52,842 bases of DNA from a virus (taxonomy: Duplodnaviria; Heunggongvirae; Uroviricota; Caudoviricetes): IMG/VR virus record IMGVR_UViG_3300006153_000005, one strand, 5' to 3'. Under the pieces are notes generated by a model. It was not told the origin of the DNA. It did no database searches and worked only from the letters and a program-made list of their open reading frames with translations. The first letter of the stretch is position 1; each line of letters opens with the position of its first letter. The translations under genes and the position numbers were made by a program. This document shows, in pieces, positions 13,001-43,422 of the stretch.

Positions 13001-16000
13001 ACCTTCGCTTCCAACACGGCCTTATCCGCTTCCAGCTTGGCAACCTCTGCATCAATCTGTGCGTCCAACTCGGCCTTTTTTCCTTGAATAAACGAGTTGA
13101 CAACACCCTCGTTCAGAATAACCTGTCCATCAGCAGATACTTGAGCATTGTTGAGAATTTCAGGATAAACCTTAGCGAACTCCAAAGCCTTGTCCAATGA
13201 CAGCGAGAACCCATTTGCAACCTCAGCCTGCAGTTCTGCAAGGGTTTGGAACGAATCGGAGACAGAATCAATGGTGCTTGCTACGTTGGAAAAGTTGTTT
13301 AGTGCCGCACTATAAGCATCCAGACTTCCCGTGATATTTCCATACAACGACTCATAAATTGCCAGCTTATTTTGGTTAGCAGCAATAGCGTCGGTATTCT
13401 CATTGATTTCATTTGTTGCCTTAGCAATCAAATTACTCCATAGACCGCCATCACTACCAAGCTGACGTTGCTCCTCATAATAAGCAATATTCTCACGTAA
13501 AGCCTCATTTTGCTCTTCCAACGAGTCGATTTCCTTTTGGATTTCGGCCATCTCATTCTGCATTTTAACATTGGCGTTTTCTTTCCATGCCTCAGTATTG
13601 AGCTTGACAACCCCATTTTCTTCATAGAGATAATCAAGATAATTGTCCTCAGCAGAAGCCAGCTTTTCAATAGTATCAGCAGACAACCCTCCGCCGTCTG
13701 CCATCTCTTTTTGAGCCGCCTCCAAAACATCATAAGCTGATTTCAGTTTTGAAAGCACCTCTGGCAACTTTTGAAGCTGTGCAATATAGCGACCCGTCTC
13801 CTCAGAGGCTCCAGCCAAATCCTCAGCATAGAAAGCCGCGAAATGCGACTGGCTTTTCAGAACAGAGTCAACAGCGTTCGCAATATCTTGACTTGAGCCA
13901 ATAAATTCTCCGCTCTCCTCAGCCGCAGCTATCACGCTCTGCCGATAGTCGTTGAACTCATCTTCCGTAGACGGGATCTCATTTTCAATCAAGCCTTGCA
14001 ACATATACTGTTCAGCCAAATTGTTGTTCAACGACGAAATACTGTCCTGATAACTCTTTACTGCGGATGAGCATTTGTTGTAGGCATCAAATAGGGCATT
14101 GTAGACTTCGTTATCCGAACCAGCAGTTTCAGACACAATATCCAGCATTTTACCCAACCGCTCATAGGCGTTAATGACTCCCTCAACAGTTGAAAGATCA
14201 AAATCATCCTCACTGGGCAACCACAATTCCATACCACGTGGAGCAAATGAGCCATCCGAAATGTATCCAGCGTCAACCAGAGCTTGCAACCCTTTCCGGT
14301 TAATATCCGCTTCATCTGCTCCCCATGTTGTAATTATGTGGTTCATTGATTTGTTGGCGGGGCCAGAGCCTTTCCCAGTTGATAAAAGCTCATCTTTTTG
14401 AGCGTTAAGACCACCACGCAAATCGCGCTCAGACGCTTGGAGAGATTCTATCGCGGCTGCTTTAATTGCGTCCGTAAGGTTCCCGTACTCTTCGGTCAAC
14501 TCCTGGATTCGATCTTTTTCTATTCCGAGCTTGTCAATAAGCTCGTCTTGGGTAGAAAGCAAATCTTCCTTGACAGAATCATCTGTTTTAACAGCTTCGC
14601 TCAACTCCAAGTAGCGACCTGTCAAATCCACAATTTCATCGCTGAGTGTAGCCGCCGAGTTCGCAGCATCAATCGCCGCTTGACGAGCTTCCTCTTGCGC
14701 CTGCTTATAGCTCTGCCACGCCTGCACCAATGCCATAACCGCAGTTACCGCCAGCATAATCCACGTCATGGGATTAGTCGCCATAGCTGCAAGCGCTGCC
14801 TTGGCATTTGCGCCGACAACTTTCCATGAAAATGCTTGGGTTTCGTTTGCCGCAGCTTGTTCCAAAGATGCAATAATCGCCTGCTTTTGGGTAGCGGTCA
14901 ATTTGTTGGAATTTAGAATTTCCACCATCATTGCGGCAGAAAGCTGTTCCGTTGTTCTCTTTTCAGTGGCCTTTGCCATATTTTTAGCAAGGGCTGAAGC
15001 GGTCGCTTTATCCGTAGACGCTTTTTCGGCAAGCTCCTGGATTGTATATCTTTGGGCAGAAACAATTAGAGCAGACATCGTTGTGATCTGTTTCTTCTGC
15101 TCCGCAGTTAGTCCAAGTGCGCTCATAGCAGCTGCCTGTTGAGACTTGTCCAGCCCTATCAGTTTCGTAGCATAGAATTGTACGCTTGCCGCACTACCAT
15201 CCATAGCTACCCCAGATGCCTTAATTGCATTTACAGCAGGCAATACTGTAGTTTGTAAAGACCCCATCGTCGATCTGAACTTTGCAATCAGTGCAATGGT
15301 TGTGATAAGAGCACCAGATCCAAACAAACCAAGAGACTGTGTTAAACGGTCAATCACGTTAGAAACAGCAATCAGGCCGTCAACAACCAATTTCAAATCA
15401 TCGGTCTGAAATAGATTTTGGGCAACGCCAACCCAGGTCTGTTGTAGAGTATTGAGCTTGTATTCCAAAGACTGGGTAATCTTATCCATTTCGCGTTCTG
15501 CACTACCAGCACTATTCTCCATTGTTTCGATAGCTTTTTGAGCCTGCTCAAAATTGGAAAGAATAGCCGAACCAATCTGGCCTTGCCGTTTGCCGAACAA
15601 AACTTCCAGCAGTTGTGCCCTGTTCTTATCTGTCAGCTCATCCCAAATTGTTGCGATATCTTGAAGAATGTCATATGTGGAACGGTAAGTATCGGGATCG
15701 CCAACTTCAAACAGTCTAACACCTTGGTTATTATTGCTGGCAACTTTGGTAAGATCCGCAATATCCCCTGTCAATTCAGCGACATCGTTTGAATACTCTT
15801 CAAGTTCTTCGTCATACCCACGAATACGCATAGACACAGTTTTCAGAGCATTACCGACACTGGAGGCATCTCTTGTAATCTCCACAGCGGCAGTAGCCAG
15901 AGCCACAGTTTCCTCAAAAGTATTATTCGCCGCTTTCATTGCTGAAGAGCTTCTGGTCATAACCTCTACGATATCCTTATTGGAAACAGCAAATTTATTG

Positions 16001-30404: not shown

Positions 30405-32213
30405 TTAATTGTAAAATGTTACATATTCGTATTCTGAACTATCCGAAAATAGATCCTGCTCCAAAAGCTCAATGAAATAGTTGCCATAAGATACCGAAGT
30501 ATACCGGTCTTTCCGTGCTCCAGACCGTTCTTCAATTTTAATAAGCCCAGTTTGATTTTGCACCGTATACTCCAGCCCAATCATTTCATTGATTAGTGCT
30601 ACAGTTTCCAAGAAAGGACGCTCATAAAAAAGCTGAGTTTCGACATCTGCTGTCTCATAGTCCGGAACAATTCGCTGTAGTTCCTCCACACCCTCTTGAT
30701 TGGGCACCATTAGCTCAATCATTTTACTGTTGAGTGTATTTTTCATACATACAGCGATTTTACTGTTCGTTTCCAACTGGGCTTTAATAGAGTAAACTAC
30801 TTCTTTCTGACCGGCAATTACGATACGAGATCTTAGGTTATCGTCGTTCATGCACGACCAAGGCTCATATTCTACATTGCGTTCTACATCATATAGAACC
30901 TTCGCTAAGGCATCGTAAATAGCAATACCTGCATTTCTGGTATCCAATACACAGTAGTCCGCATCAAAGTCTGTAAATAGTTGTTTGATCCGAATGGCCT
31001 GCTTGGTTGTTTCAAATTCCGTTTGAGGTTCCATATACACCACTTGCCGGCGATACCCTTGCTTAACTTCAATGTGTTCTCCGTTCACATCAGAAGTCTT
31101 GTATTCCATACTTTCTGGCAAAGCACGAATACAAGAGAAAATAGAGTTATCGTTGCTGTCTCCCCCCTCAGTGGCAATATCACAAGATATAATACGGATT
31201 TCTCCTTGCTGCCGAGGAATAGCATAGAGATTTCTTGCCCGCATCAAAACATCCTCGTTTTTCCGTGGATAGAATGGACGTTTTAGGCAACGGTTCTTAT
31301 TCAACATCTCGTAAGTAAAGTAAGCGTGGGCGTTTTCGGCAATCATTTGGTTTTCGTACTCGATTGCCCATGCTACACTATCCAGTTTGTTCCGTTCTTT
31401 GATAAGGAACGCCCTTGGTTTGATTGCGTGTTTCAACGAAATGCTATAATCCATGCCAATCAGAATAGCAGAATCTTTTTTCAACATATCTTTCACGATG
31501 ATCTTCATCTGATCCCACATCCAATGGTTTTTATACCATGCAGAACTGATATAGACCTCTTTCGGCTCCTCGATCAAAGAACTGTATTCCTCATACTTCA
31601 AAATACATGGAACCTGCCGCACATATAGAAAAGGAGAGAGAACGGTATCAATTATGTTTTTCAGAATCATACGGAACTCTTCATAAATCATTACAGTCGC
31701 ACGGTGTCCACGAGCATTGTCATTGGCCGGCACCACAATAATAGAGCTTCCATTATGGAAGAAAACCTCAATTTCATTCTGATTATCACGGATGCGCTCA
31801 ATCTCCGCCTGCAACAACGGAGATCGAGGTAGAATTTCCTTCTGGATTTTCTCAGACACAATCAGCTTTGCCTGTCCCTTCGTGGCTGAAGCTACGACGA
31901 TTTTCGCACCTGGTCGCAAAATTGCTTCCTTACAAGCATAAATCGCAATGATAAAGGATTTTGCGGCACTCCGCGCTGCAACCAGACAAATACTTGGAAA
32001 GATATCCATTAGAAACAAGATAATGTGTTGATAAAGGTGAAGAGTAATCCCAAAATAATACTGTACGAAACGGCTTGGGTTTCTTCTCCAAAAGGTAATC
32101 CAATCCATTAGTTTCTGTACTCTATGGGGATCTCCCAGATAGTTTGAGGATGAAAAATGCTCATGTACATGACGCTGCCGTTCATCCATAACTTTTTCGT
32201 AATTCATGCTCAC
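30405..32213 (-). CDS. terL: Terminase large subunit
   Basis: Walker A AARSAAKS, RGHRA, Walker B YEEFR, nuclease SCDIA and KDRY. Confidence 0.9.
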   Translation of the reverse strand: MSMNYEKVMDERQRHVHEHFSSSNYLGDPHRVQKLMDWITFWRRNPSRFVQYYFGITLHLYQHIILFLMDIFPSICLVAARSAAKSFIIAIYACKEAILRPGAKIVVASATKGQAKLIVSEKIQKEILPRSPLLQAEIERIRDNQNEIEVFFHNGSSIIVVPANDNARGHRATVMIYEEFRMILKNIIDTVLSPFLYVRQVPCILKYEEYSSLIEEPKEVYISSAWYKNHWMWDQMKIIVKDMLKKDSAILIGMDYSISLKHAIKPRAFLIKERNKLDSVAWAIEYENQMIAENAHAYFTYEMLNKNRCLKRPFYPRKNEDVLMRARNLYAIPRQQGEIRIISCDIATEGGDSNDNSIFSCIRALPESMEYKTSDVNGEHIEVKQGYRRQVVYMEPQTEFETTKQAIRIKQLFTDFDADYCVLDTRNAGIAIYDALAKVLYDVERNVEYEPWSCMNDDNLRSRIVIAGQKEVVYSIKAQLETNSKIAVCMKNTLNSKMIELMVPNQEGVEELQRIVPDYETADVETQLFYERPFLETVALINEMIGLEYTVQNQTGLIKIEERSGARKDRYTSVSYGNYFIELLEQDLFSDSSEYEYVTFYN

Positions 32214-33190
32214 TCCTCCGATCCAGACAGGTTAAACTCCTTATCCATTTCTTTGGAGCCAGTTAAAAGGTTGTTGAGTGGCCGTAACATGAACCTTTGA
32301 ATGTACTCTTTTAGATGGTCATAATCAGCATAAATCGCCTTATCCTTATAGAAGTCAGCCGGACAATGTTCCTCAATATCCCGAATCATCACACCCAAAG
32401 GACTGAGCTGCATTTCTGCTTCTGCTTTCTTCTTACGATCTTCAATCTCCGTTGTGGCCGCTTCGATAAACGCCTTGTAGGAATTTGCAAGAGCACCAAC
32501 ACCTGCCGCACTATTTTTCACACTGTTTTGTAAATTCAGCTTCAAATAGCAGATGGAAACATAAAGCTCATCCTGTCGTTTATCCACAGGCGCACCACAG
32601 CGATCTACCCAGCTGTCATATTCTCCTTGCAGGGTATCATAATCACCATCAGAGAATCCCAATCCAAATCTGCGGATCACCTCGATATTAGTTGTAATAT
32701 CGTCATTGTCCTCCGCCTCTTGTACAGTCGCAGCATTTTCAACCTCAGCCTCAAAGCGCCTGATTAGCGTATCGGAATATGTGGACTCTTTGCTGCTCTG
32801 CTTAATATTCAGCTTAGAGATATATCCACTCATGCGATTGCGATTGGCACTGATTTTTCGTGAAGCGGCCCATGCTGTTTCGTCCACACATAGATCAATA
32901 ATCTGACACACGCGCTCCATTGCAGAATCCTCATCCTTATCAAAGAACGGGATATTCTCTTCAAACATTTCTGCCACGCATTTACGACAGTAAACTACAT
33001 AACCGTTGTTCCCCTTAAACAGTGGGGACTTAGAAGGAGAAAAATTTCCCTCTTGCTTTGTGTACTCATGGCCGCAGCGTGGACAGCGATATACCCTATC
33101 CTCAACAACACGCGGCTCGGCCTCGCTCGGTTTTGCATCCTTATTCACTTTCAAAGGAGTAGGTTTCTTTAGCTGTTTCTTTGCCGCCAT
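32210..33190 (-). CDS. Putative terminase small subunit (Zn finger)
   Basis: CPRC...CRKC; overlaps terL start; position. Confidence 0.6.
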   Translation of the reverse strand: MAAKKQLKKPTPLKVNKDAKPSEAEPRVVEDRVYRCPRCGHEYTKQEGNFSPSKSPLFKGNNGYVVYCRKCVAEMFEENIPFFDKDEDSAMERVCQIIDLCVDETAWAASRKISANRNRMSGYISKLNIKQSSKESTYSDTLIRRFEAEVENAATVQEAEDNDDITTNIEVIRRFGLGFSDGDYDTLQGEYDSWVDRCGAPVDKRQDELYVSICYLKLNLQNSVKNSAAGVGALANSYKAFIEAATTEIEDRKKKAEAEMQLSPLGVMIRDIEEHCPADFYKDKAIYADYDHLKEYIQRFMLRPLNNLLTGSKEMDKEFNLSGSEE

Positions 33191-33216
33191 ACTGCGACCT
33201 CCCTTCTTAATATGAC

Positions 33217-33252
33217 AAAACCTCGGAAATCCGAAGATCCCGAGGTTTTTTT
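33217..33252. terminator. Bidirectional terminator-like hairpin between RNA island and packaging genes
   Basis: AAAACCTCGG/CCGAGGTTTT 10-bp stem; T7 tract on plus strand, T4 on minus strand. Confidence 0.65.
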
Positions 33253-33271
33253 AGTCGTTATAGTATTTTGC

Positions 33272-33347
33272 TGGTGCGCCTAAAGGGACTCGAACCCCCG
33301 GCCAACTGGTTAAAAGCCAGCTGCTCTACCAACTGAGCTACAGGCGC
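33272..33347 (-). tRNA. tRNA-Lys(UUU)
   Basis: Cloverleaf; anticodon loop CTTTTAA; TTCGAGT T-loop; encoded CCA. Confidence 0.97.
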
Positions 33348-33354
33348 ATATATA

Positions 33355-33645
33355 AGGGTGGGTAGGGTCTGTGTGGCCGTATCCCACTGGCCTACCCTCA
33401 CTGATACGGGTGCAAAACATACTTTTTCAGGCTCTCGAAGTCCCGTTGGGGTATGTTAGCCCGCCGCGCTCCTGATCGGCTATGCCGCTTTGCTTACAGC
33501 GTTTAGGTTATCTATCGCGTTTTGCCTGCGCCGGAATTTCACCGGAGGGAGCGACCCCTATGCTACCCACACTCGGTCAATTTTTATTTTACCGACGTGT
33601 CAGAACCGTCACACGTCATCCAGGGTAGAGGTGTGCCTTTTCAGG
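33355..33645 (-). ncRNA. Large ornate RNA, 3' domain (GOLLD-like)
   Basis: Hairpins GACGUGU/ACACGUC, CCGG-UGAAAUU-CCGG, CAUAC/GUAUG; long-range GUGGGUAG(33570-63)/CUACCCAC(33365-58); crossing CAGGC/GCCUG; no credible ORF. Confidence 0.6.
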
Positions 33646-33646
33646 C

Positions 33647-33723
33647 TGGTGGGTTGAGAAGGTAACGATCCTTCATCCTACGGTTTTTCAGACCGTCGCT
33701 CAGACCTCATAAGCCATCAACCC
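33647..33723 (-). tRNA. tRNA-Phe(GAA), atypical T-loop
   Basis: Cloverleaf; loop CTGAAAA; T-loop ATCGTTA; CCA. Confidence 0.85.
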
Positions 33724-33856
33724 ATATATGCGCATTTTTGTTTAACGGTAATCACAGGTCAGCGCATAAGACCACCGCCCGTTTCGTAGGGGTAACGCCT
33801 TTTCGTACCGTTTATCATAGGGTCGTTAGAAAATGGTAAATATCAACACATCCCGT

Positions 33857-33947
33857 TGGCGACGGAGGTGGGATTTGAACCCACGGACGGCTCATCACCG
33901 CCTCCAGTTTTCAGGACTGGTGCCATCAACCACTCGGCCACTCCGCC
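33857..33947 (-). tRNA. tRNA-Ser(UGA), C33
   Basis: Long variable arm; G73; anticodon loop CCTGAAA; CCA. Confidence 0.92.
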
Positions 33948-33998
33948 ATTTGAACCCGACCTTGTTTTAGTTGCATATCGGGTAGCAACAAACACTTG

Positions 33999-34085
33999 TG
34001 GTAGGGGAGGTGGGAATCGAACCCACTCAGCCCGAAAGCAACGGATTTACAGTCCGCCCCAGCTCTCCAACTCTGGCGCTCCCCT
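33999..34085 (-). tRNA. tRNA-Tyr(GUA)
   Basis: Class II cloverleaf; loop CTGTAAA; CCA. Confidence 0.95.
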
Positions 34086-34091
34086 ATATAA

Positions 34092-34430
34092 ATTGCATAA
34101 GTGACTCCACTCCCAGCCTCACCACACACCTTTACGCTGTGCCATATTTCAGCCTTTCTATCGGGGAGCAGGGGGATTAGTGTTTCCCATCTGAGTCTAC
34201 CAAGGTATTTCGATGTACATGACATCCGTTGCACATATCCACGCTTCCGCAGTTACGTGGCTGTTGCCATCTGTGTGCGGCTATGGCCTGTGCGCAGCTT
34301 CCGCAACGCCCTCGATAGTACAACGCTACCTAACCGCTCTTTCTTTTATGCCCAGTCACTCCCTCACAGGAGGCCACCTTGGATTACGACCGCCACTCAC
34401 AGCCGTGATATGTTATCTCAATCGGGCAAA
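34092..34430 (-). ncRNA. Large ornate RNA, 5' domain (GOLLD-like)
   Basis: Multiple hairpins; long-range GUGACU/AGUCAC and crossing CCAAGGU/ACCUUGG; 11/12-bp helix to the 33625-33636 segment. Confidence 0.5.
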
Positions 34431-34432
34431 TA

Positions 34433-34508
34433 TGGAGCTGGTGCAGGGACTCGAACCCAGAACCCACCGCTTACAAAACGGTTGCTCTACCATTAGAGCT
34501 ACACCAGC
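34433..34508 (-). tRNA. tRNA-Thr(UGU)
   Basis: Cloverleaf; loop TTTGTAA; CCA. Confidence 0.96.
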
Positions 34509-34511
34509 AAA

Positions 34512-34587
34512 TGGAGCTGACGCAGAGACTCGAACTCTGAACCCGCTGCTTACGAAACAACTGCTCTACCATTGGAGCTACGTCAGC
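34512..34587 (-). tRNA. tRNA-Thr(CGU)
   Basis: Cloverleaf; loop TTCGTAA; CCA; near-paralog of the adjacent Thr tRNA. Confidence 0.95.
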
Positions 34588-34588
34588 A

Positions 34589-34662
34589 TGGCAGGGGCCG
34601 AAAGATTTGAACTCTCACCAAAAGTTTTGGAGACTTTCATGCTACCGTTACACCAGACCCCT
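34589..34662 (-). tRNA. tRNA-Trp(CCA)
   Basis: Cloverleaf; loop CTCCAAA; G73; CCA. Confidence 0.95.
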
Positions 34663-34665
34663 ATA

Positions 34666-34741
34666 TGGCGACCTCGGCGGGTTTCGATCCCGCTACCTCC
34701 AGCGTGACAGGCTGGCGCTCTTCCGATTGAGCTACGAGGCC
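34666..34741 (-). tRNA. tRNA-Asp(GUC), T-loop begins with A
   Basis: Cloverleaf; loop CTGTCAC; T-loop ATCGAAA; CCA. Confidence 0.93.
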
Positions 34742-34744
34742 ATT

Positions 34745-34975
34745 TTACTTATCCCAAGGTATTTTATCATCTAAATCCAGGGGAGACTTCGCTGTACTAA
34801 TTTGTTCATATCCGTCTTCAACCTTGCGCCATAAAGTAAACCGCATCCTTTCCAGACATTGAGTTATGAAATATTCCTGTCCGGTTGTCGTAATACAATG
34901 AACACCAGTCCCATTCTCAGAAGAAGGAAATTTTCTCACGATTTTCGGTTTATTATCAGCAGATCCTCTTGCCAT
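34745..34975 (-). CDS. Small hypothetical protein embedded in tRNA array
   Basis: ATG 34975 (MARGSADNKPK) behind RBS AAGAGGAG; fills the gap between tRNA-Glu and tRNA-Asp. Confidence 0.7.
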   Translation of the reverse strand: MARGSADNKPKIVRKFPSSENGTGVHCITTTGQEYFITQCLERMRFTLWRKVEDGYEQISTAKSPLDLDDKIPWDK

Positions 34976-34990
34976 AGCTACTCCTCTTTT

Positions 34991-35067
34991 TGGTGATGCC
35001 GGAGAGATTTGAACTCTCAAACTCCGCCTTGAGAGGGCGGCGACTCTACCAATTCGTCCACGGCACC
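34991..35067 (-). tRNA. tRNA-Glu(CUC)
   Basis: Cloverleaf; loop CTCTCAA; CCA. Confidence 0.94.
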
Positions 35068-35072
35068 AAGTA

Positions 35073-35149
35073 TGGTACTCCCAGCGAGGCTCGAACTCGC
35101 ATTACCGGCTTGAAAGGCCAGCCTCCTATTCCAGTTAGAGGATGGGAGC
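35073..35149 (-). tRNA. tRNA-Glu(UUC)
   Basis: Cloverleaf; loop CTTTCAA; CCA. Confidence 0.94.
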
Positions 35150-35157
35150 ATATATTA

Positions 35158-35296
35158 AGATGTGGGCGAGGATTTGCACCTCACATAACCCAGCCAGAGC
35201 TGGAGTCCTCCGGTTGTATCGTCTTTGTCAAACGCCGCACAGCTCTCCACCACTGTCTTACGACTCCATAGCGTCTACCTATTCCGCCACCACATC
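35158..35296 (-). ncRNA. tRNA-like RNA with expanded anticodon arm and no encoded CCA
   Basis: Acceptor GAUGUGG/CCACAUC; Leu-type D arm GCGGAAUAGGUAGACGC; UGGAG/CUCCA stem enclosing ~58 nt; T arm GAGG-UGCAAAU-CCUC. Confidence 0.75.
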
Positions 35297-35298
35297 TT

Positions 35299-35372
35299 TG
35301 GCAGGGGTGGCTGGAATCGAACCAACGATGCGGGAGTCAAAGTCCCGTGCCTTACCATTTGGCGACACCCCT
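35299..35372 (-). tRNA. tRNA-Gln(UUG)
   Basis: Cloverleaf; loop CTTTGAC; G73; CCA. Confidence 0.95.
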
Positions 35373-35381
35373 AAATCGCTA

Positions 35382-35410
35382 TTGTATTTTTCTCAGAAAT
35401 ATGGTATAAA
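35382..35410 (+). promoter_or_regulatory. sigma70-type promoter of the antisense small gene
   Basis: TTGTAT-N17-TATAAA with extended -10 TG. Confidence 0.7.
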
Positions 35411-35444
35411 CTTCTTGTAGCAAACTTTATAAGGAGGCGTAACC

Positions 35445-35642
35445 ATGGCTGAGGAAAAGAAAACCGTTACTCGTAGGAAACGCACACCGGAACAACGTAT
35501 CAAGGACATCGACGCCCAGATCGCAAAGCTACAAGCAGAAAAAGCAGAGCTTGAAAAGCCAATCAAAATCCAACAGATCCTGGCAAAAGCATCCGATATG
35601 TCTCCCGAAGAAATCGCTGAAAAGCTCGGTATTGAGCTGTGA
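35445..35642 (+). CDS. Small coiled-coil protein, stand-alone unit antisense to the tRNA array
   Basis: RBS AAGGAGG; own promoter and terminator; MAEEKKTVTRRKRTPEQRIKDIDAQIAKLQAEK. Confidence 0.85.
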   Translation: MAEEKKTVTRRKRTPEQRIKDIDAQIAKLQAEKAELEKPIKIQQILAKASDMSPEEIAEKLGIEL

Positions 35643-35649
35643 TTTCTCT

Positions 35650-35675
35650 CCCCGCCGAAAGGCGGGGTTTCTTTA
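35650..35675 (+). terminator. Intrinsic terminator
   Basis: CCCCGCC-GAAA-GGCGGGG followed by TTTCTTT. Confidence 0.85.
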
Positions 35676-35751
35676 TGGAGATACCGATAGGATTTGAACC
35701 TACGATCCTGGGGTTGCGGCCCAGAGCCTTACCAATCTTGGCTACGGTATC
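35676..35751 (-). tRNA. tRNA-Cys(GCA), C33
   Basis: Cloverleaf; loop CCGCAAC; U73; CCA. Confidence 0.93.
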
Positions 35752-35865
35752 ATAACGGGCCTAACAGCGTGTATCGTTGCCTTATGCAATCACTGTTTCC
35801 ACTCTGAATAGAGCGTGTCAGGGTTTCTGGTTTTCCCTCCGCCTACTATAAACCCTTGTTCGGCT

Positions 35866-35951
35866 TGGTGCTGGTGGTGGGACTTGAACCCACACGCCAT
35901 TTCTGGCAACAGATTTTGAGTCTGCCTCGTCTGCCATTCCAACACACCAGC
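35866..35951 (-). tRNA. tRNA-Leu(CAA)
   Basis: Class II cloverleaf; loop CTCAAAA; CCA. Confidence 0.95.
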
Positions 35952-35959
35952 GTGTTTCC

Positions 35960-36024
35960 TACGGAGCACATTTTGGGTTGTCAATTAAAAGTTGATTCCA
36001 AAAAAAAGTTGCTGTTAGTGCTCC
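35960..36024 (-). ncRNA. ACAGCAA stem repeat, copy 1 (displays a Lys(UUU)-type anticodon loop)
   Basis: GGAGCAC-UAACAGCAA-...-UCAA[CUUUUAA]UUGA-...-GUGCUCC-GUAG. Confidence 0.6.
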
Positions 36025-36026
36025 AA

Positions 36027-36110
36027 TGGTAGGGATAGTGGGAGTCGAACCCACACGCGAACTGCGTCGGAACCTAAATCCGGTGCGTCTGCCAATTCCG
36101 CCATATCCCC
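36027..36110 (-). tRNA. tRNA-Leu(UAG)
   Basis: Class II cloverleaf; loop TTTAGGT; CCA. Confidence 0.95.
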
Positions 36111-36334
36111 ATAAAACCATCCAAGGCAATCTGATCGTCACCAGTTGCAAGGAGCTGCGGCCAGCTCCACATGGCTGGTAATATCCCACTTGGCTCTACG
36201 TTCACTAACGGTTTGTGGGCAACCAACAGGTATTTTTCCCTGCTCCCATCCCTCCACTATTTGCTAAAGATGCCAGGGGAGCCGGCACCTATCATCATAT
36301 CTGCCAAAGTAGAGAAGTCACAGATATAATAGAT

Positions 36335-36410
36335 TGGAGTGAGAAACGGGACTTGAACCCGCAACATCCGACTTGGAAGGACGGCGCTCTACCAGTTGAG
36401 CTATTCCCAC
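36335..36410 (-). tRNA. tRNA-Gly(UCC)
   Basis: Cloverleaf; loop CTTCCAA; U73; CCA. Confidence 0.96.
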
Positions 36411-36567
36411 ATATTGACCTACTCACACCGTAGGCCATGGTGCCAACTCTCTGCTGTTGGGACGCAGCGGTTTCGCTTGAAACCTGCTAAAAGTTTTCAC
36501 TGCCAGATTGTGAACATTTCTATTCCCCATTCAGTTTACAGTCTCCGCTCTGTTTGTGGGGTGGGCA

Positions 36568-36643
36568 TGGTGGCGGGAGTGGGACTCGAACCCACGATCT
36601 CCAACTTATGAGGATGACGAGATGACCGCTTCTCTATCCCGCT
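36568..36643 (-). tRNA. tRNA-Met(CAU), initiator-like but atypical
   Basis: A1xC72 mismatch and fMet-like D arm, but the anticodon stem UCAUC/GUUGG lacks the three G-C pairs; CCA. Confidence 0.85.
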
Positions 36644-36719
36644 ATATGTTGGCAGTTCTAAAAACAGCACCGATGTAGACATCAGTTGCCTGTAAACTCT
36701 CTGCCATGTTTTGAGCTAC

Positions 36720-36796
36720 TGGCTGGCAGGGTGGGACTCGAACCCACGACCCTCTGATTAACAGTCAGATGCTACTGCCATCTGAGCTACCCGCCA
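36720..36796 (-). tRNA. tRNA-Asn(GUU)
   Basis: Cloverleaf; loop CTGTTAA; G73; CCA. Confidence 0.95.
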
Positions 36797-36806
36797 ATAC
36801 TTAGGC

Positions 36807-36953
36807 TACGAGACGCGAAAAAAATGGAGGTGGTTATCCTTGTCGGACTTAAAAAACATTTGATAGAATATTTTGAAAATTTGCTGTGCGCGTCTCACAG
36901 GACACTTTTTTTCTTTTTTACCTTAAAAAATTATAAATTGCTGTTAGTGTCCC
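36807..36953 (-). repeat. ACAGCAA stem repeats, copies 2 and 3 in tandem
   Basis: GGGACAC-UAACAGCAA...GUGUCCU-GU (36897-36953) and GAGACGCG-CACAGCAA...CGCGUCUC-GUAG (36807-36896). Confidence 0.6.
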
Positions 36954-36959
36954 TATGTA

Positions 36960-37384
36960 TGGTGGAGCCGAGGGGATTCGCACCCCTGTCCGAAATTCCT
37001 ACATGAGCAAGACCTTCTTACACAATAGACGATTTTCCAGCGATGCCTTGCGGCGGGCACTTGCGATACCGTCAAATCTTTCCTAGGGCGTACTGGTTTG
37101 TACACCTCCACCACCTTGTCTTTATTTTACAGAAGCACAAGGAGAAACTGCACGTGCTGGATGATTCTTTAACCGCAGACGCTTACCCATATCCAGCTGG
37201 TGCGTCGTTTTGGAATCCAGCCACCAATCAGGCAGCAGCCCTCTCAGCCACAAAAGCAGCAAAAGCGGGGTGGATCATTACAACAGATTCAGTGTTGTCA
37301 TTTCATTTTTAGGTATGCCTTTAGGCGGTCATCTACCTGTGAGTCTTGCACTCTCAAAACCCCGTCGAATCTAAAAACGGCCCC
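36960..37384 (-). ncRNA. ssrA: tmRNA
   Basis: 5' GGGGCCG..GAUUCGAC; G3.U70; 3' T arm plus ACCA; tag frame 37299-37228 = DNTESVVMIHPAFAAFVAERAAA*. Confidence 0.95.
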
Positions 37385-37407
37385 ATATAGAATTGTCAAA
37401 GTACCTA

Positions 37408-37483
37408 TGGTCGGGACGAGAAGAATTGAACTTCTGACCGCACGATTATCAGTCGTGTGCTCTACCAACTGAGCTATATCCCG
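37408..37483 (-). tRNA. tRNA-Ile(GAU)
   Basis: Cloverleaf; loop CTGATAA; CCA. Confidence 0.96.
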
Positions 37484-37597
37484 ATTTAGCGATATGCGTC
37501 CGAAGAACCTCGTTCATGACCGATAGGTTTCTGACAGGAATAGTAGTTAAGTAATGAACTGAACCACACAAGCGTCAGCATAACCAACATATCTTGC

Positions 37598-37673
37598 TGG
37601 TGGAATTAGGGAGGATCGAACTCCCGACCTCCTGCTTGCAAAACAGGCGCTCTCCCAACTGAGCTACAACCCC
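37598..37673 (-). tRNA. tRNA-Ala(UGC)
   Basis: Cloverleaf; G3.U70; loop TTTGCAA; CCA. Confidence 0.97.
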
Positions 37674-37699
37674 ATACATTGATTTTGTTTGTTTCTAAG

Positions 37700-38332
37700 G
37701 AAAATTTAATCTTTCCATCATACTCACCACTGGGCCTTCGCCCTACCTCCATAATCTTCTTCATTGTTCCGCCACCAGGGAGACAAGTCTGAGCTTCGGG
37801 GAGCGACCCCTAACTTCTTGCCCCAGCGCCATAGCGCCACCTCCTACGTGAGCCTGTTTACTCACAAATTTCACCGTTCGTTCAGAAAAGTTTTGAATTA
37901 AATACTTACTTTTATAGTAATTTCTTCAAAAGATTTTGCAATCTGTCCTACGGCTACTCTAACCAGTGACTTTCGTTATAGCCGGATTTCTCCGACATCA
38001 AGACAGGAGCGCATTGTTGGTTTTACCTCCGTATCTCTCGGCTACCACACCGAGCTACTGCAAGGCTTATTCTCCACAGGAGCGTCTATTGTTGCGCCCG
38101 AAAGTTCTGTGCGTTATGAAGCGATAACTCTTGGCGACATATGTTTCTGTTGGCGGTTTCCGCCTCCCCACCGTACATCACTGTACAGTAGCGGCCTCAC
38201 TTGAAAGGTATCCCTATGCTACGATGTCCATAGACAATCGCCAAGTCAAACCGAAAATACCATACGCCTCGGAGTGCTGACACACTTTGTTCACCGAGTT
38301 AGTAATAAGCATGATGCAAAGATTAAATTTTC
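37700..38332 (-). ncRNA. Large ornate RNA, ROOL-like (633 nt)
   Basis: 5' and 3' ends pair over 32 nt (31 pairs, 4 of them G.U on the minus strand); dense internal hairpins; no ORF; tRNA-array context; size fits ROOL. Confidence 0.72.
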
Positions 38333-38343
38333 AAGGAACATTG

Positions 38344-38411
38344 ATTTTGTTCGCCGCTATGGTTATAGTATAGCACGCTCTGAACCAGATGTCAATAGCG
38401 GCGAACAAAAT
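38344..38411 (-). promoter_or_regulatory. sigma70 promoter of the RNA island, bracketed by a perfect 17-bp inverted repeat
   Basis: TTGACA(38395-90)-N17-TATACT(38372-67) with extended TG; arms ATTTTGTTCGCCGCTAT (38344-60) and ATAGCGGCGAACAAAAT (38395-411). Confidence 0.85.
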
Positions 38412-38415
38412 TTTT

Positions 38416-38733
38416 TCAATTTTTTTCTGCTCTGCTCAACAAGCGGAGTTTCCCAGGGTCGTTAGCCTTTACAGCCTCTTTCAAATTATCACCAGGACGG
38501 AACACAACCACCCGATAATCGTCCATTTGTCTTTGCTTTTTGGTATGGATGTCTCGCACAAGACATCCTTTCCTTGTCTTCACCTCAAATGTCCCAAATC
38601 CCCGAATTGTTACTTTCTCGCCATGAGCCAACGCCTCTGCAATGACATGGAACACATCGTTGATTACAGCACCAGCCTGATTTTTGTAATAGTCCATCTC
38701 GGACAAGGCAACTACAAGATCGTTTTTGAGCAC
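38416..38733 (-). CDS. hup: HU/IHF-family DNA-binding protein
   Basis: ALAHGEKVTIRGFGTFEVKTRK...VVFRPG...LKEAV signature. Confidence 0.92.
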   Translation of the reverse strand: MLKNDLVVALSEMDYYKNQAGAVINDVFHVIAEALAHGEKVTIRGFGTFEVKTRKGCLVRDIHTKKQRQMDDYRVVVFRPGDNLKEAVKANDPGKLRLLSRAEKN

Positions 38734-38744
38734 ATGATCACTCC

Positions 38745-39983
38745 TCAGTTCAGTTTGATCTGATAATATGCGTCAGCGCCAATCCCAGGCGTAAACACCA
38801 TCATCAGTTGACCCGGAGTGGAATATAACCGCTTCCCGTTCGCATACTCGTCAGTTCCGCAAAGGCACCTTACGATCATGCTCTCAATGCCCAATTCCTC
38901 AAATTCCTCTTTGTGGTGCTTATCAGCAAGGATAACATAATCAATTCCAGAGCCATATTTCTTCACAAACAGAGTGTTCAACGTCCTGCCGGCGTTCTTC
39001 ACACTGTCAAGGTCGCCGTGAGTGGCGCAAATCTGATAACCACACACATTAAAGTATAGAAATTCGTAATACTCAGCTTGGGGAAATTGAATGTCGCCCC
39101 TATCACCCAGTCGTTGTTCCAGCCACCAAGGAATCAGACGCTCCATGTTATCCGCGTGAATGCTGTCTTGTTTATTCTGGACGGTGCGCAAATGATTTCC
39201 GTAGGTTGCGTGTACCACCGTTTCGTCAACTACATCTGCCAGAGCAGCCACTGCTTGGGCAATAATTTCCGACACCTGCATCACCTGATCGCACACCAAC
39301 TCTTCAGAGGCAACACGGGCACTGGTGTGAATCGCACCGTGGGCCATATCCCCCAGCAGAAGGATATGAAGCCTCCGACAGCGATGCAGTCTGATCCGTT
39401 CGATTGCCGTTTCCACCAACCGTTCCACACGACAGCGGCACACTTCGGTATTATAACGCTCCCAGATGTTATCTGTCACCATACCATAGTGCCAATCCGC
39501 AAACACAATAACCGCTTCGTTATCACCATAGGCGTAAACGGAAGATTTGTCTATATTCAGAGGCGTAGACTCGTTCAATGCCGCAGCCGCCTCCACAAGA
39601 CGGTCTTCCAGATTTTCAGTCCGTCCAATGCGGTCAACCAGCTTGTTAAACTCACGCCGCTGATCAAAGAGCCGTTTAGATTCTTTTCTGGCTTCAGCAA
39701 TTTTGATATCAAGCTCTCCCAGATATTGCTCTTTATCCGGTCGGTCTACCGCTGCATACTTTCGCTTAAAGTGTTGGGCGACGGCATAGCCAGAGTATGG
39801 CGTAACAGACGCCGCTTTCCTCAGACTATCCCGATGACAGTCCAGCTGAGTCGCCTCTACGATATCTTCCCAGTCCAGGTCGTCCGGTTTCTGCTCCATC
39901 TTAATTTCAATCAGACGAAGCCCATACTCGTAAAGATCTTCACCATCTTTTTGCTCGTACTTAGGGTTCACGAATTGTTTCAC
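38745..39983 (-). CDS. Calcineurin-like metallophosphoesterase/nuclease (SPbeta YonJ-like position)
   Basis: DWH, GD, GNH, HGD, DKHH motifs. Confidence 0.85.
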   Translation of the reverse strand: MKQFVNPKYEQKDGEDLYEYGLRLIEIKMEQKPDDLDWEDIVEATQLDCHRDSLRKAASVTPYSGYAVAQHFKRKYAAVDRPDKEQYLGELDIKIAEARKESKRLFDQRREFNKLVDRIGRTENLEDRLVEAAAALNESTPLNIDKSSVYAYGDNEAVIVFADWHYGMVTDNIWERYNTEVCRCRVERLVETAIERIRLHRCRRLHILLLGDMAHGAIHTSARVASEELVCDQVMQVSEIIAQAVAALADVVDETVVHATYGNHLRTVQNKQDSIHADNMERLIPWWLEQRLGDRGDIQFPQAEYYEFLYFNVCGYQICATHGDLDSVKNAGRTLNTLFVKKYGSGIDYVILADKHHKEEFEELGIESMIVRCLCGTDEYANGKRLYSTPGQLMMVFTPGIGADAYYQIKLN

Positions 39984-40174
39984 CTCTCTTCTGTCGGCGG
40001 CAATTCTATCTGTCGCTCAATTATTAGTGTAATATTGGGTACTCCACTCCACCGTTTTAGAATTTCCTCTATGCTGTAGGTGTTTACTTTATCCCTGTGA
40101 AATTCCGTCAAGGTTCCGTCAGAACAGTCGATTGTGACATTTGTATATTGTTCTCTTTGCTCCTGAAAGGCCAT
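39980..40174 (-). CDS. YonK-like small protein
   Basis: 64 aa; YSIEEILKRWSG...ITLIIERQIELP resembles SPbeta YonK; adjacent to the phosphoesterase as in SPbeta. Confidence 0.55.
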   Translation of the reverse strand: MAFQEQREQYTNVTIDCSDGTLTEFHRDKVNTYSIEEILKRWSGVPNITLIIERQIELPPTEER

Positions 40175-40410
40175 CAACACTCACCACTCTGGCTTTTTCT
40201 TCGCGCATCCCGTAGCGCACGTTGGCGGTCAAACTCCTTCACCCTTTCTGCAGCCGCAGAATTACTGTCGGCAATCGGACGCATCAGCTCCTCGCTCTCC
40301 GTACAGAAATAGTGATGCCGTTTGGAATCTTGCTTCATGGTACGGGGAAATTTATAATGCGGGAACAGTTTGACCAGTAGGTCTTTCTCTTGCTTGGTAA
40401 TCGAAATCAC
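40174..40410 (-). CDS. Small hypothetical protein
   Basis: GTG start with RBS; stop overlaps the next start (TGATG). Confidence 0.65.
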   Translation of the reverse strand: MISITKQEKDLLVKLFPHYKFPRTMKQDSKRHHYFCTESEELMRPIADSNSAAAERVKEFDRQRALRDARRKSQSGEC

Positions 40411-40472
40411 GAAAAACTCATCCTTTTCATATAGATTCGAGGGGCTTGATTTTGTTCGTTACTTCCCCTTCA

Positions 40473-40539
40473 TAATTTGACCACAAAAATGCTATTCCTA
40501 ACCGCCGAGCAACCTCGGCGGTTAGGTGTGGTCAAATTA
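40473..40539. terminator. Long bulged hairpin (terminator or processing site) after the RNA polymerase gene
   Basis: 13-bp outer and 13-bp inner perfect stems with an 11-nt bulge and CAAC loop. Confidence 0.6.
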
Positions 40540-40587
40540 GAATTTTTCTACCAAAAAGCAATAATTCACACCCGGATTTGTGCTTTT

Positions 40588-43422
40588 TCAACGAATACAG
40601 TCGGCCAAATTCGCCGGAATCACCATCTCTCTGCGGAATCGGAAGTCATAGATTTCGATACTTCCTGCGATATTTTCATCTTCTACCAGCAACGGGATTG
40701 GTGTCCGGCTTTGCTCGATCAAATTCAAGAAGTCCTGATTGGGCAAAGAAAATAGCGCATAGAAAAGAGTCCTTGAAATTTCCTTGTTGGCTGGATCTTC
40801 GATTGCCAATAGTAAGCGGTATGCCGTATGACGATTTAGTTTGAGCTTTTCAATGTAGCTCAGGTATTCCTGTCTAACCTCGTTTACCAGAATCGCCTTA
40901 CCGTAGTTATCCAGATCGTCGTCTGTACCGTTCCAAATCATTTGAATCTTGGATCTCATATCACGCACAAACTCCAGGATACGGTCTACCTGCGGATATT
41001 TGACAGAACGAGCGGAATATTCATCTTTGGGCATCAGCAATGCAGAAAACGGCACATAATCACGATGAACATGATTGACACGGAAAGTATTCAGACTGTG
41101 CTGTAGGTAGTCCATCGTAGTATCGTGGAATTTGTAATTCTTCCGATCACTGTCATAATACCCTTTCATACGGGCAATCTTTCCGAAAAAGTTGGGTTTG
41201 ATTTGCCTACCATCATCATCTCGTGCCTCGTGCTTCTTTCTCAGCCTTTTAATCTCCGCTACACTATCTACGGCGTATTCCCGTTTGGCTTTGTCGATTT
41301 CGATGTTAGAAAGCACATCCAACTGGGCAATTTCACAGTAAAGCTCCTCCACCTCGGAGAAGTCTGCGCCGCTGTTCAGTGCATCCCATAGTTTAGTATT
41401 CAGCTCTTGCGAGAGATTTACAATCTCACCAATCTTGTTGACCGATGTTTTGATGTCCAAATCGGACTGATCCGCACGAGTGTAATGCCGCACAATCTTC
41501 TTGGCGTCAACCAGACTTGTAGGAACCAAGAAGCGATTATAATTCCTCTCTGCGGCACCAATTAGGATGGGATTGTCAGTTAAAAGCATAGTATCCGAGT
41601 CAAAATCAGCACCGGATAAACGGAATAAGATATTCTCCTCAATACTGTTGACACACACGACTTCTTTAGTGAGATTGAAAAAACGCTCAATTTCTGAATT
41701 TTCACGGTTTTTTGTCAACAGAATATTCCCCATTGTTACATGAGGACTGCGGGAGCCAAGAATGGTCTGATTGAAGCGAAAGCGCTTGCTATAAATATTG
41801 CCAGCTCCAATTTGGCTTGTGCCATCAAACGACCCAATAGCCGCATACAGCATTTCCATCGGATTACCCAGCAAAGTAGAGTAATTGCCGTCAACCAAAA
41901 TATGACCTCTGCGAATGTCCTTTTTGAACGCTTTGCTTATGTCGTGCTTGAAGTCTTCATACAGACGGGTATTTGCAAATTTATCTGTAACCCCTAACAT
42001 CTGATAGACGATATCATTTGTGGTTGGTGCTGCGTTAATCGGCTTATCAACACCAGAATAACGGATATGATACCGCAATACTGCCGGGTCATTCTGAATC
42101 ATTCTCAGATAGTCCAACGACGGTTTCACCAACAAATCTACTTCCTGTTGCGTCATCTGCAAAGTATTCAGCAGCTGGTAATGAATCTGAACCATACGTC
42201 CATCAAAGAAGTCCGTAGGCTTCTCATATTTCACCACACCAAAATCACCGTCATCTTCTAAGAGCCTCAGCCACGTTTCCAACGGGCCAAACTTTACATA
42301 CTTGATGCTGCTTGGCGTCGTGATGATTTTGATGTCACTAATCGAATTTGCGAGAGTAAACCCGTTTAGCTGGGACACCTCTGTGATTCCTTGAGCAGCA
42401 AAAAACTCCTGAATATTGCAGTTGAAGCAAGCCGACTTGAAGAAGCGGTTGCGGAGCAGGATCATTCCGTGTTCACCATACTCTGCCATTGCACTCTTGT
42501 CTATCAAAGACTGTCCATCCCAGATGCTATTCTCAACTTCAACATCTTCTGGCTGAGATGATAGCCACCCATCATCCCCAACTCTGGTGGCGATTACTCG
42601 ATCTTTGAACTTACTGGTATAATCGTCAATCACCAGGAAGTTTTCGGGACGAAGTGGAATTGTACCAATGATACTGCTCAACGTCAGAGCAATGTAAGCC
42701 TCAAATCCGGCCAGGTCAAGGTCTTGCCCATCTCGGATGTGTAAACCGCACTGCTCCCATTTGTGCATACGAGGATAAAGCCGTTCATCAATAAAGAGGC
42801 ACTTGCCAACCCGACCGCTGCCAGCAGAACGCTTAAACCTCCGAAAACGAATACCGTCACACACAAAGCCATCATGGTACAACCGACTCCGTAACTGGGC
42901 AGCGGTAAAGACAACTTTCATACTTTTTCCCAGCTTGTAAACACCGTCCTCAAACACAAACAGATTCCCCAAGACTGAAGACTCCACAGGCTGATCCACT
43001 GGGTTATCTACTCGAACAGCGATCAATTCTCCGTCCTTTATGCAGATATTGTCTACCAACTCTACATCAGACGGGAGATAACCGTATTTGATATAGGTTT
43101 TATCGAAAAAACGGTTAAACTCCTTGACACTGTACTTAAACGTTACATTGATGACTCGACGGCAATATTCTTTGCCTCGTTTGAAGAAAGTAAAGTCCAT
43201 TCTACGGTAGATTTTCTCAAAGACCTCACGCATTTTAATAAGATCCAGACTGTAATCCAGCGTATTCACAAACCGTTTCGTATTAAATTCACCACGATTG
43301 TCTCCGCTACTATACCTCACGGTATATTCCGTACAACAATCATTGGAATAGTTGGACAAAAACAAATCCTTTGCGTCCGCAGACACGATGTACACTGAAT
43401 TATTGATAGGTCTACCCTCCAT
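40588..43422 (-). CDS. yonO: Single-subunit RNA polymerase of the eukaryotic-RdRP-like / SPbeta YonO family
   Basis: 944 aa; RSPH (first barrel) and LSGADFDSD (catalytic DxDxD); location upstream of late genes as in SPbeta. Confidence 0.88.
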   Translation of the reverse strand: MEGRPINNSVYIVSADAKDLFLSNYSNDCCTEYTVRYSSGDNRGEFNTKRFVNTLDYSLDLIKMREVFEKIYRRMDFTFFKRGKEYCRRVINVTFKYSVKEFNRFFDKTYIKYGYLPSDVELVDNICIKDGELIAVRVDNPVDQPVESSVLGNLFVFEDGVYKLGKSMKVVFTAAQLRSRLYHDGFVCDGIRFRRFKRSAGSGRVGKCLFIDERLYPRMHKWEQCGLHIRDGQDLDLAGFEAYIALTLSSIIGTIPLRPENFLVIDDYTSKFKDRVIATRVGDDGWLSSQPEDVEVENSIWDGQSLIDKSAMAEYGEHGMILLRNRFFKSACFNCNIQEFFAAQGITEVSQLNGFTLANSISDIKIITTPSSIKYVKFGPLETWLRLLEDDGDFGVVKYEKPTDFFDGRMVQIHYQLLNTLQMTQQEVDLLVKPSLDYLRMIQNDPAVLRYHIRYSGVDKPINAAPTTNDIVYQMLGVTDKFANTRLYEDFKHDISKAFKKDIRRGHILVDGNYSTLLGNPMEMLYAAIGSFDGTSQIGAGNIYSKRFRFNQTILGSRSPHVTMGNILLTKNRENSEIERFFNLTKEVVCVNSIEENILFRLSGADFDSDTMLLTDNPILIGAAERNYNRFLVPTSLVDAKKIVRHYTRADQSDLDIKTSVNKIGEIVNLSQELNTKLWDALNSGADFSEVEELYCEIAQLDVLSNIEIDKAKREYAVDSVAEIKRLRKKHEARDDDGRQIKPNFFGKIARMKGYYDSDRKNYKFHDTTMDYLQHSLNTFRVNHVHRDYVPFSALLMPKDEYSARSVKYPQVDRILEFVRDMRSKIQMIWNGTDDDLDNYGKAILVNEVRQEYLSYIEKLKLNRHTAYRLLLAIEDPANKEISRTLFYALFSLPNQDFLNLIEQSRTPIPLLVEDENIAGSIEIYDFRFRREMVIPANLADCIR

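Follow-up and report, generated by a model that had tools for sequence, protein, structure and literature searches.

The window, that is, the whole stretch of 52,842 nt of DNA analysed in this study (IMG/VR record IMGVR_UViG_3300006153_000005), is phage DNA with all of its genes on the minus strand, including genes for a large terminase, a portal protein and a tape-measure protein of 2739 aa. Related phages reach approximately 138 kb with terminal repeats. Relatives were also found inside the genomes of Butyricicoccus, Dysosmobacter, Hominicoprocola and the isolate D16-76, all belonging to the Oscillospirales (Clostridia), and the phage family therefore appears to be temperate. The locus examined here is a 633-nt non-coding interval lying between an exonuclease gene (recognised by PHROG only) and an HU-type DNA-binding gene on its upstream side and a long array of stable RNA genes on its downstream side (Table 1). 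Read in the direction of transcription, the array consists of tRNA-Ala, tRNA-Ile, a 425-nt tmRNA and 17 more tRNAs.

Within the 6-kb island, a single promoter comes close to the consensus (TTGACA-17-TGcTATACT). It lies directly ahead of the interval, with a predicted transcription start near 38360, and the same -35 and extended -10 elements are kept in relatives with and without the RNA described below. The promoter is bracketed by an inverted repeat whose left arm overlaps the -35 element and whose arm sequences have diverged among relatives both with and without that RNA; the repeat may represent an operator, or a bidirectional terminator for read-through from upstream.

Several further features of the array were observed. 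The phage-encoded tmRNA (36960-37384) scores 72 bits against Rfam, and an overlapping 'tmRNA_permuted' match (37252-37469), which spans the 5' part of the tmRNA together with tRNA-Ile, looks like an artefact of the adjacent tRNA. Several of the array spacers (33272-37600) are 150-350 nt long and contain no ORF, most of the tRNAs are preceded by ...UAU or AUAU, and there may be further structured RNAs among the tRNAs. Just downstream of the array, a 326-aa protein (32210-33190) has a weak, sub-threshold match to the Lar restriction-alleviation domain (22.9 bits, against a cut-off of 28.6).

Table 1. Positions of the features at the ROOL locus, in coordinates of the 52,842-nt window
Feature	Position	Strand	Basis or remark
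Inverted repeat, 16 nt (arms 38410..38395 and 38360..38345), around promoter	38345..38410	.	Inverted repeat in relatives too
Sigma-70-type promoter: TTGACA, 17-nt spacer, TG-extended TATACT	38367..38395	-	11/12 consensus matches plus TG
Leader copy 1 (AACAAAATCAATGT), 5 nt upstream of ROOL	38338..38351	-	Exact 14-mer
ROOL RNA gene, including full 32-bp closing helix P1	37700..38332	-	Rfam RF03087, helix count, covariation
5' arm of closing helix P1	38301..38332	-	Helix count; covarying pairs in relatives
GGUA loop, homologous to env-120 G307-A310, one side of kissing loop B4	38043..38046	-	Mapped on alignment A1
AACC strand, homologous to env-120 U332-C335, B4 partner	38019..38022	-	3/4 Watson-Crick pairs kept
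AU-rich variable linker	37890..37942	-	Little conservation and many indels (A1 columns ~428-492)
3' arm of closing helix P1	37700..37731	-	Helix count; covariation
Leader copy 2 (same 14-mer), between ROOL (10 nt away) and tRNA-Ala (2 nt away)	37676..37689	-	
tRNA-Ala(UGC), 26 nt downstream of ROOL	37598..37673	-	ARAGORN, Rfam
Co-oriented array, 19 tRNAs and 425-nt tmRNA (36960-37384)	33272..37673	-	ARAGORN, Rfam
Terminator-like hairpin and U-run after last tRNA (Lys)	33216..33245	-	

Identity and fold of the RNA

A scan of the whole window with Rfam 15 returned a single large-RNA match, to ROOL (RF03087), on the minus strand at 38322..37713 (348.5 bits, E-value 7.4e-80). This score is 3.5 times the gathering cut-off of the family (99.1 bits), all of the 574 model positions (1-574) are covered, and the conserved ROOL motifs all align to the model, including ACAAUAGACG, UUCUGAA, GUGAAA, GCUCAGAC and GUAGGGCGAAGGCCC. 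The match spans 610 nt, or 633 nt when the full closing helix P1 is counted, which is approximately 10 bp longer at each end than in the Rfam model; this fits the size of ROOL RNAs (~550-660 nt, average 581). No ORF of 60 aa or more overlaps 37700-38332 on either strand, the longest reaching 53 aa (plus strand) and 38 aa (minus strand), and the indels that distinguish the ROOL copies of relatives are large and not multiples of three. At gathering thresholds, GOLLD (RF01998) had no match in the window or in seven related loci. A preliminary description of the interval, made from the sequence alone, had read it as a minus-strand RNA, had related it to ROOL by its size, terminal stem and tRNA/phage context, had reported no interior ORF, and had named a search with the Rfam model as a way to check the assignment; all of these points hold. 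The interval is very probably a genuine ROOL gene, encoded on the minus strand of a temperate, ~138-kb phage family of gut Oscillospirales, here from the mouse gut. It is an ordinary, high-scoring member of the family described by Weinberg et al. 2017 (PMC5737381), in a setting that has also been described already (Weinberg 2017; Kretsch 2025).

The two arms of the closing helix, each 32 nt long and 569 nt apart, form 27 Watson-Crick pairs, four G.U pairs and one G-G mismatch when read as minus-strand RNA, while the same five positions are all mismatched when the helix is read as plus-strand RNA. The helix had been described in just these terms, with one G-G mismatch and four G.U pairs specific to the minus strand, and the four interior hairpins named with it were likewise all recovered in the minus-strand RNA: GGCGGAAACCGCC at 38152-38164, GUACAGUGAUGUAC at 38173-38186, CUCGG/CCGAG at 38294-38298/38268-38272 (with a second such pair at 38050-38054/38037-38041) and GGGCGAAGGCCC at 37732-37743. 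Compared with dinucleotide shuffles, the minimum free energy of the minus strand (-219.8 kcal/mol) has a z-score of -6.6 and that of the plus strand (-160.6 kcal/mol) a z-score of -3.0, and the fold of 37700-38332 exceeds chance.

Six distinct ROOL copies, the one in the window and five further distinct sequences from seven carrier records, were aligned; they are 75-97% identical. Their RNAalifold consensus, made without the Rfam model, is a multi-junction fold of 182 pairs, 48-50 of which show compensatory double changes, and P1 itself contains pairs that covary among relatives (for example alignment columns 6/705, 8/703, 14/697 and 17/694). Across the six copies, the consensus fold has an energy of -188.8 kcal/mol on the ROOL strand compared to -104.4 kcal/mol on the opposite strand, and 177 G.U cells compared to 43. 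At the DNA level, ROOL is 84-88% identical between phages, while the adjacent exonuclease and HU genes are 72-78% identical, and this higher conservation argues for selection on the RNA. Sliding identity across the exonuclease gene, ROOL and the tmRNA revealed no sharp recombination breakpoint at the ROOL borders, and a recent transfer of ROOL was rejected on this ground.

Distribution among relatives and the duplicated leader

Through the neighbouring exonuclease gene, 53 related phage loci were gathered, and 50 of the records were scanned with the ROOL model. ROOL was present in seven of these 50 records and is an accessory module in this phage family. It is dispensable, since the 43 records without it keep the same promoter and array; in these relatives the tRNA array begins 400-430 nt after the exonuclease gene, directly behind that promoter. 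In the window and three relatives (L012, L013 and L032) the array opens with ROOL, while a tRNA-Thr lies ahead of it in three others (L009, L010 and L046) and two tRNAs, plus a third predicted by Rfam only, lie ahead of it in L011. The preliminary description had called ROOL the first transcript of the island. In the window this stands by position, as no other gene lies between ROOL and the one near-consensus promoter, and it is matched by an RNA-library contig that begins next to that promoter and continues across ROOL into the array; it does not extend to the relatives in general, as tRNAs precede ROOL in four of the seven carriers. In a tree of the exonuclease, the carriers form two well-supported clades within an unresolved polytomy, a topology that would still allow a single gain of ROOL.

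Individual relatives showed other features within the same region. In L011, a gene for a 285-aa DUF6273 protein (12510-13367) lies directly after ROOL, inside the tRNA array, and L040 has an extra ORF in an enlarged slot. Among the relatives without ROOL, the array of L016 contains a borderline tRNA-Sec match (15264-15352; 48.9 bits, against a cut-off of 47) and that of L055 a '6A RNA' match (12866-12914; 47.3 bits, against 41.2). None of the proteins encoded nearby (the HU-type protein, the exonuclease, the DUF6273 protein of L011 and the extra ORF of L040) provided a functional lead.

Beyond this family, ROOL was found in one of 151 sampled genomes of the order (L076), where it forms an independent locus within a tRNA array and is co-oriented with the tRNAs; the immediate flanks of that copy contain no repeat. 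Searches of the phage record collection yielded no blastn match to the element and, by megablast with 15 kb around it, tRNA-sized matches only, and an exact 22-nt ROOL motif had no matches in viral contigs. The nearest records, G001 and G002, contain no ROOL match: the fragment in G002 is identical but stops short of ROOL, and what G001 has in common with the region is limited to tRNA-like pieces.

The ROOL gene is bracketed by two copies of a 14-nt sequence, AACAAAATCAATGT, the first of which belongs to the leader that follows the promoter. This sequence occurs only twice in the window, even when one mismatch is allowed, and none of 5000 shuffles reached a repeat of 14 nt. Local alignment indicated that, in each of the five carrier lineages, the spacer immediately downstream of ROOL contains a repeat of the post-promoter leader of its own phage. 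The match is 14/14 in the window and also 14/14, with a different sequence, in L067/L068, and 20/24 in L066 (0/300 shuffles in each of these three cases), 13/15 in L062 (10/300 shuffles), and 16/17 plus a gap in L063 (6/300 shuffles), where it reaches into the first 6 nt of the tRNA-Thr of that phage. Such a likeness to the leader is absent from the other 15 spacers of the window (scores of at most 16, compared to 28), and the arrays without ROOL have no second leader copy. Removing one repeat together with the intervening DNA recreates the empty site of the relatives. In L062 and L066 the two leader copies differ from each other in a manner common to both phages, which points to an old, vertically inherited duplication. 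In the window, as in L067/L068, the two copies match perfectly within a genome but have different sequences between genomes, a pattern that needs re-duplication or homogenisation. The published literature searched contained no mention of flanking leader repeats at ROOL. The repeats look like a scar of insertion or recombination, or else a shared processing site. Inversion of the promoter/ROOL segment was considered and rejected, as the far leader copy complements the left arm of the promoter-bracketing repeat over only ~8 nt and the RNA contigs contain no strand-switch joints.

A rival reading is that ROOL is mainly a selfish or mobile cassette, either DNA or derived from RNA, which inserts in the leaders of phage tRNA arrays, duplicating them, and persists although the phage gains nothing from it. 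Its patchy spread, in seven of 50 related records and one of 151 genomes of the order, speaks for such an element, as do the finding of a leader repeat in every one of the five carrier lineages, the restriction of the exact 14-mer to the two ROOL borders of the window, and the lack of a second leader copy both in the other spacers and in arrays without ROOL. However, no transposase, integrase or reverse transcriptase is encoded in or next to the module, and ROOL is more conserved than its flanking genes, with covariation in its helices and in an inter-subunit contact (see below), so that selection appears to act on the RNA itself. In addition, a single gain is compatible with the exonuclease tree, and the repeat could equally well be the scar of one recombination event. 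It is thus unlikely that ROOL is maintained in this manner. We regard as similarly doubtful the specific route in which a mobile ROOL cassette would have entered the 5' leader while a second copy of the transcript leader, spanning about +1 to the first tRNA, was produced; the mechanism could be RNA-mediated or otherwise target-duplicating. If ROOL were mobile, the identical but lineage-specific repeats of the window and of L067/L068 would represent repeated insertion, or excision followed by re-insertion, and would provide a first handle on the spread of ROOL among phages as well as a natural on/off polymorphism for functional tests. If it is general, the leader duplication would bear on the gain and loss of the ROOL module.

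Expression, biogenesis and role

The exact ROOL sequence is present in mouse-gut metagenomes and in six metatranscriptome runs from four studies, and one run per study was compared over positions 31000-42000. The RNA evidence consists of assembled contigs, which report presence and enrichment rather than ends, strand or abundance. In run X20, a lone 601-nt contig (37713-38313, depth 43) nearly coincides with the ROOL model match and is essentially the sole piece of the phage recovered. In X16, a contig extends from the promoter side through ROOL to tRNA-Gly (36227-38373) at a depth of 37, compared to 8-13 for the upstream genes. In X15, a contig covering 35907-40461 has a depth of approximately 1018, compared to 15 and 3 on its flanks, and reads through from the upstream genes. 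The depth in X19 is flat (~8 across the whole region) and uninformative on transcription; the signal in this run may be DNA carry-over. Judged from these contigs, ROOL appears to be expressed in the mouse gut.

A likely route to the mature RNA can be proposed. Transcription would begin at about 38360 and ROOL would be made as the 5' part of a polycistronic precursor of stable RNAs, from which a cut by RNase P at tRNA-Ala would free its 3' end. The closing helix P1 would shield both ends of the RNA, and because its ends are protected in this way ROOL would accumulate. According to the summary of Ling et al. given in PMC12515178, a tRNA precursor fused to the 3' end of ROOL leaves the cage formed by the RNA undisturbed, and the fusion described there corresponds to the natural arrangement in the window. 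The ROOL of L. salivarius is non-essential, has high stability and reaches the abundance of 16S rRNA (PMC5643018), and published ideas on the function of ROOL include the encapsulation of tRNAs, ribosomal particles or other cargo (PMC12286853). ROOL might act as an accessory factor on the translation apparatus or the tRNA pool while the phage grows, for instance through the sequestration or sheltering of cargo that is ribosomal or of tRNA size, a suggestion that we put forward as tentative at best.

It is also conceivable that ROOL acts in cis, as a structured leader that serves as a processing or stability scaffold for the tRNA/tmRNA precursor, instead of as a free cage RNA. Its place between the promoter and the first tRNA, with which it is probably co-transcribed, accords with such a role, as does the uniform depth of the X16 contig from ROOL to tRNA-Gly together with the position of the only strong promoter upstream. 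Nevertheless, in 43 related records the same promoter drives the same array although ROOL is absent, the RNA follows one to three tRNAs or precedes a protein gene in relatives that carry it, the L. salivarius ROOL lies outside any tRNA array (PMC5643018), and X20 recovers ROOL alone, without the array. A role confined to the leader is consequently highly improbable. The least credible alternative, that the interval is a chance palindrome-rich spacer, another large RNA (GOLLD, a group II intron or the like) or a small-protein gene, is refuted by ROOL being the sole Rfam family to match here and doing so far above its cut-off, by the absence of an ORF of at least 60 aa together with indels that break any reading frame of threes among relatives, and by the compensatory nature of the substitutions in the helices.

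The window ROOL is not an element of a new type, but its natural setting is a convenient one: its promoter is clear, it heads a phage tRNA/tmRNA operon, and among close relatives it is present in some and absent from others at one site. Some of these relatives are prophages of cultured Oscillospirales. What the present analysis adds to the description of the family is evidence of expression in vivo, a presence/absence polymorphism at a fixed site, covariation of the B4 contact (see below) within one phage group, and the bracketing duplication of the leader.

Comparison with known cage-forming RNAs

ROOL RNAs occur typically, though not invariably, in phages and prophages near tRNA islands and form RNA-only cages (PMC5737381, PMC5643018, PMC12286853, PMC12990946). 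Few other natural RNAs have been shown to assemble, without protein, into a cage that exceeds the ribosome in size. Three to four ROOL RNAs have been solved by cryo-EM, and the published ones assemble as octamers or as a hexamer (PMC12286853; PMC12990946): that of E. faecalis is an octamer, while that of L. salivarius, according to the structure cited in PMC12990946, is a hexamer owing to its ultrashort apical stem. We infer cage formation by the window ROOL from these homologues only; by analogy, it would self-assemble without protein into a hollow dihedral cage, either octameric or hexameric, with its AU-rich linker inside. The linker aligns to the unstructured A/U-rich loop of the Rfam ROOL model and corresponds to the disordered linker found inside the cage of the solved structures. 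The apical stem of the window ROOL is only 4 bp long, shorter than P7 of the env-120 ROOL; with a stem this short, a hexamer is a candidate alongside the octamer.

The bridges between subunits of the env-120 octamer have been listed by Kretsch et al. 2025 (Supplemental Table 2; PMC12286853), and their positions were transferred to the window copy through short motifs only, onto alignment A1. By this mapping, the B4 kissing loop of env-120 (GGUA 307-310 with UACC 332-335) has its counterpart in GGUA at 38046..38043 and AACC at 38022..38019. Two of the pairs are invariant G-C, the third covaries (U-A in four of the six copies and C-G in two), and the fourth is A-A in all six copies. The window copy thus has a mismatch at one of the four pairs of env-120, while the three pairs that it keeps match the 3-bp J11/9-L11' contact of the E. 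faecalis ROOL (PMC12990946). Two further loops are conserved among the copies: a GAAA loop, whose counterpart donates the A-minor contact of bridge B2, and a UCGCU loop, in which the GC at the centre might make the symmetric pair of B6. Bridge B1 (env-120 A38-C41 with G465-U468) was not located in the window copy by motif mapping; a candidate is the loop GUCA, with invariant candidate partners and a pairing of at most 3 bp (UCA/UGA).

Overall, the window ROOL resembles env-120 and the rest of the family in its length of approximately 600 nt, its long closing helix, its shared motifs and hairpins, its variable internal linker, its phage origin, its position in a tRNA array, and its conserved and covarying B4 kissing loop. 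The L. salivarius ROOL, which is the 'long abundant ncRNA' of Cousin et al. 2017 (PMC5643018), belongs to the same family and is likewise present or absent among close relatives; it is highly expressed in the gut and non-essential (PMC5643018). However, it is located on a megaplasmid beside an HTH gene instead of in a phage tRNA array, and it is a hexamer owing to its apical stem, where the RNA described here may form either a hexamer or an octamer. GOLLD (RF01998) is alike in being a large, ornate RNA of phages and prophages that lies in tRNA arrays and forms an RNA-only cage, with a sequence and fold that are unrelated to those of ROOL.
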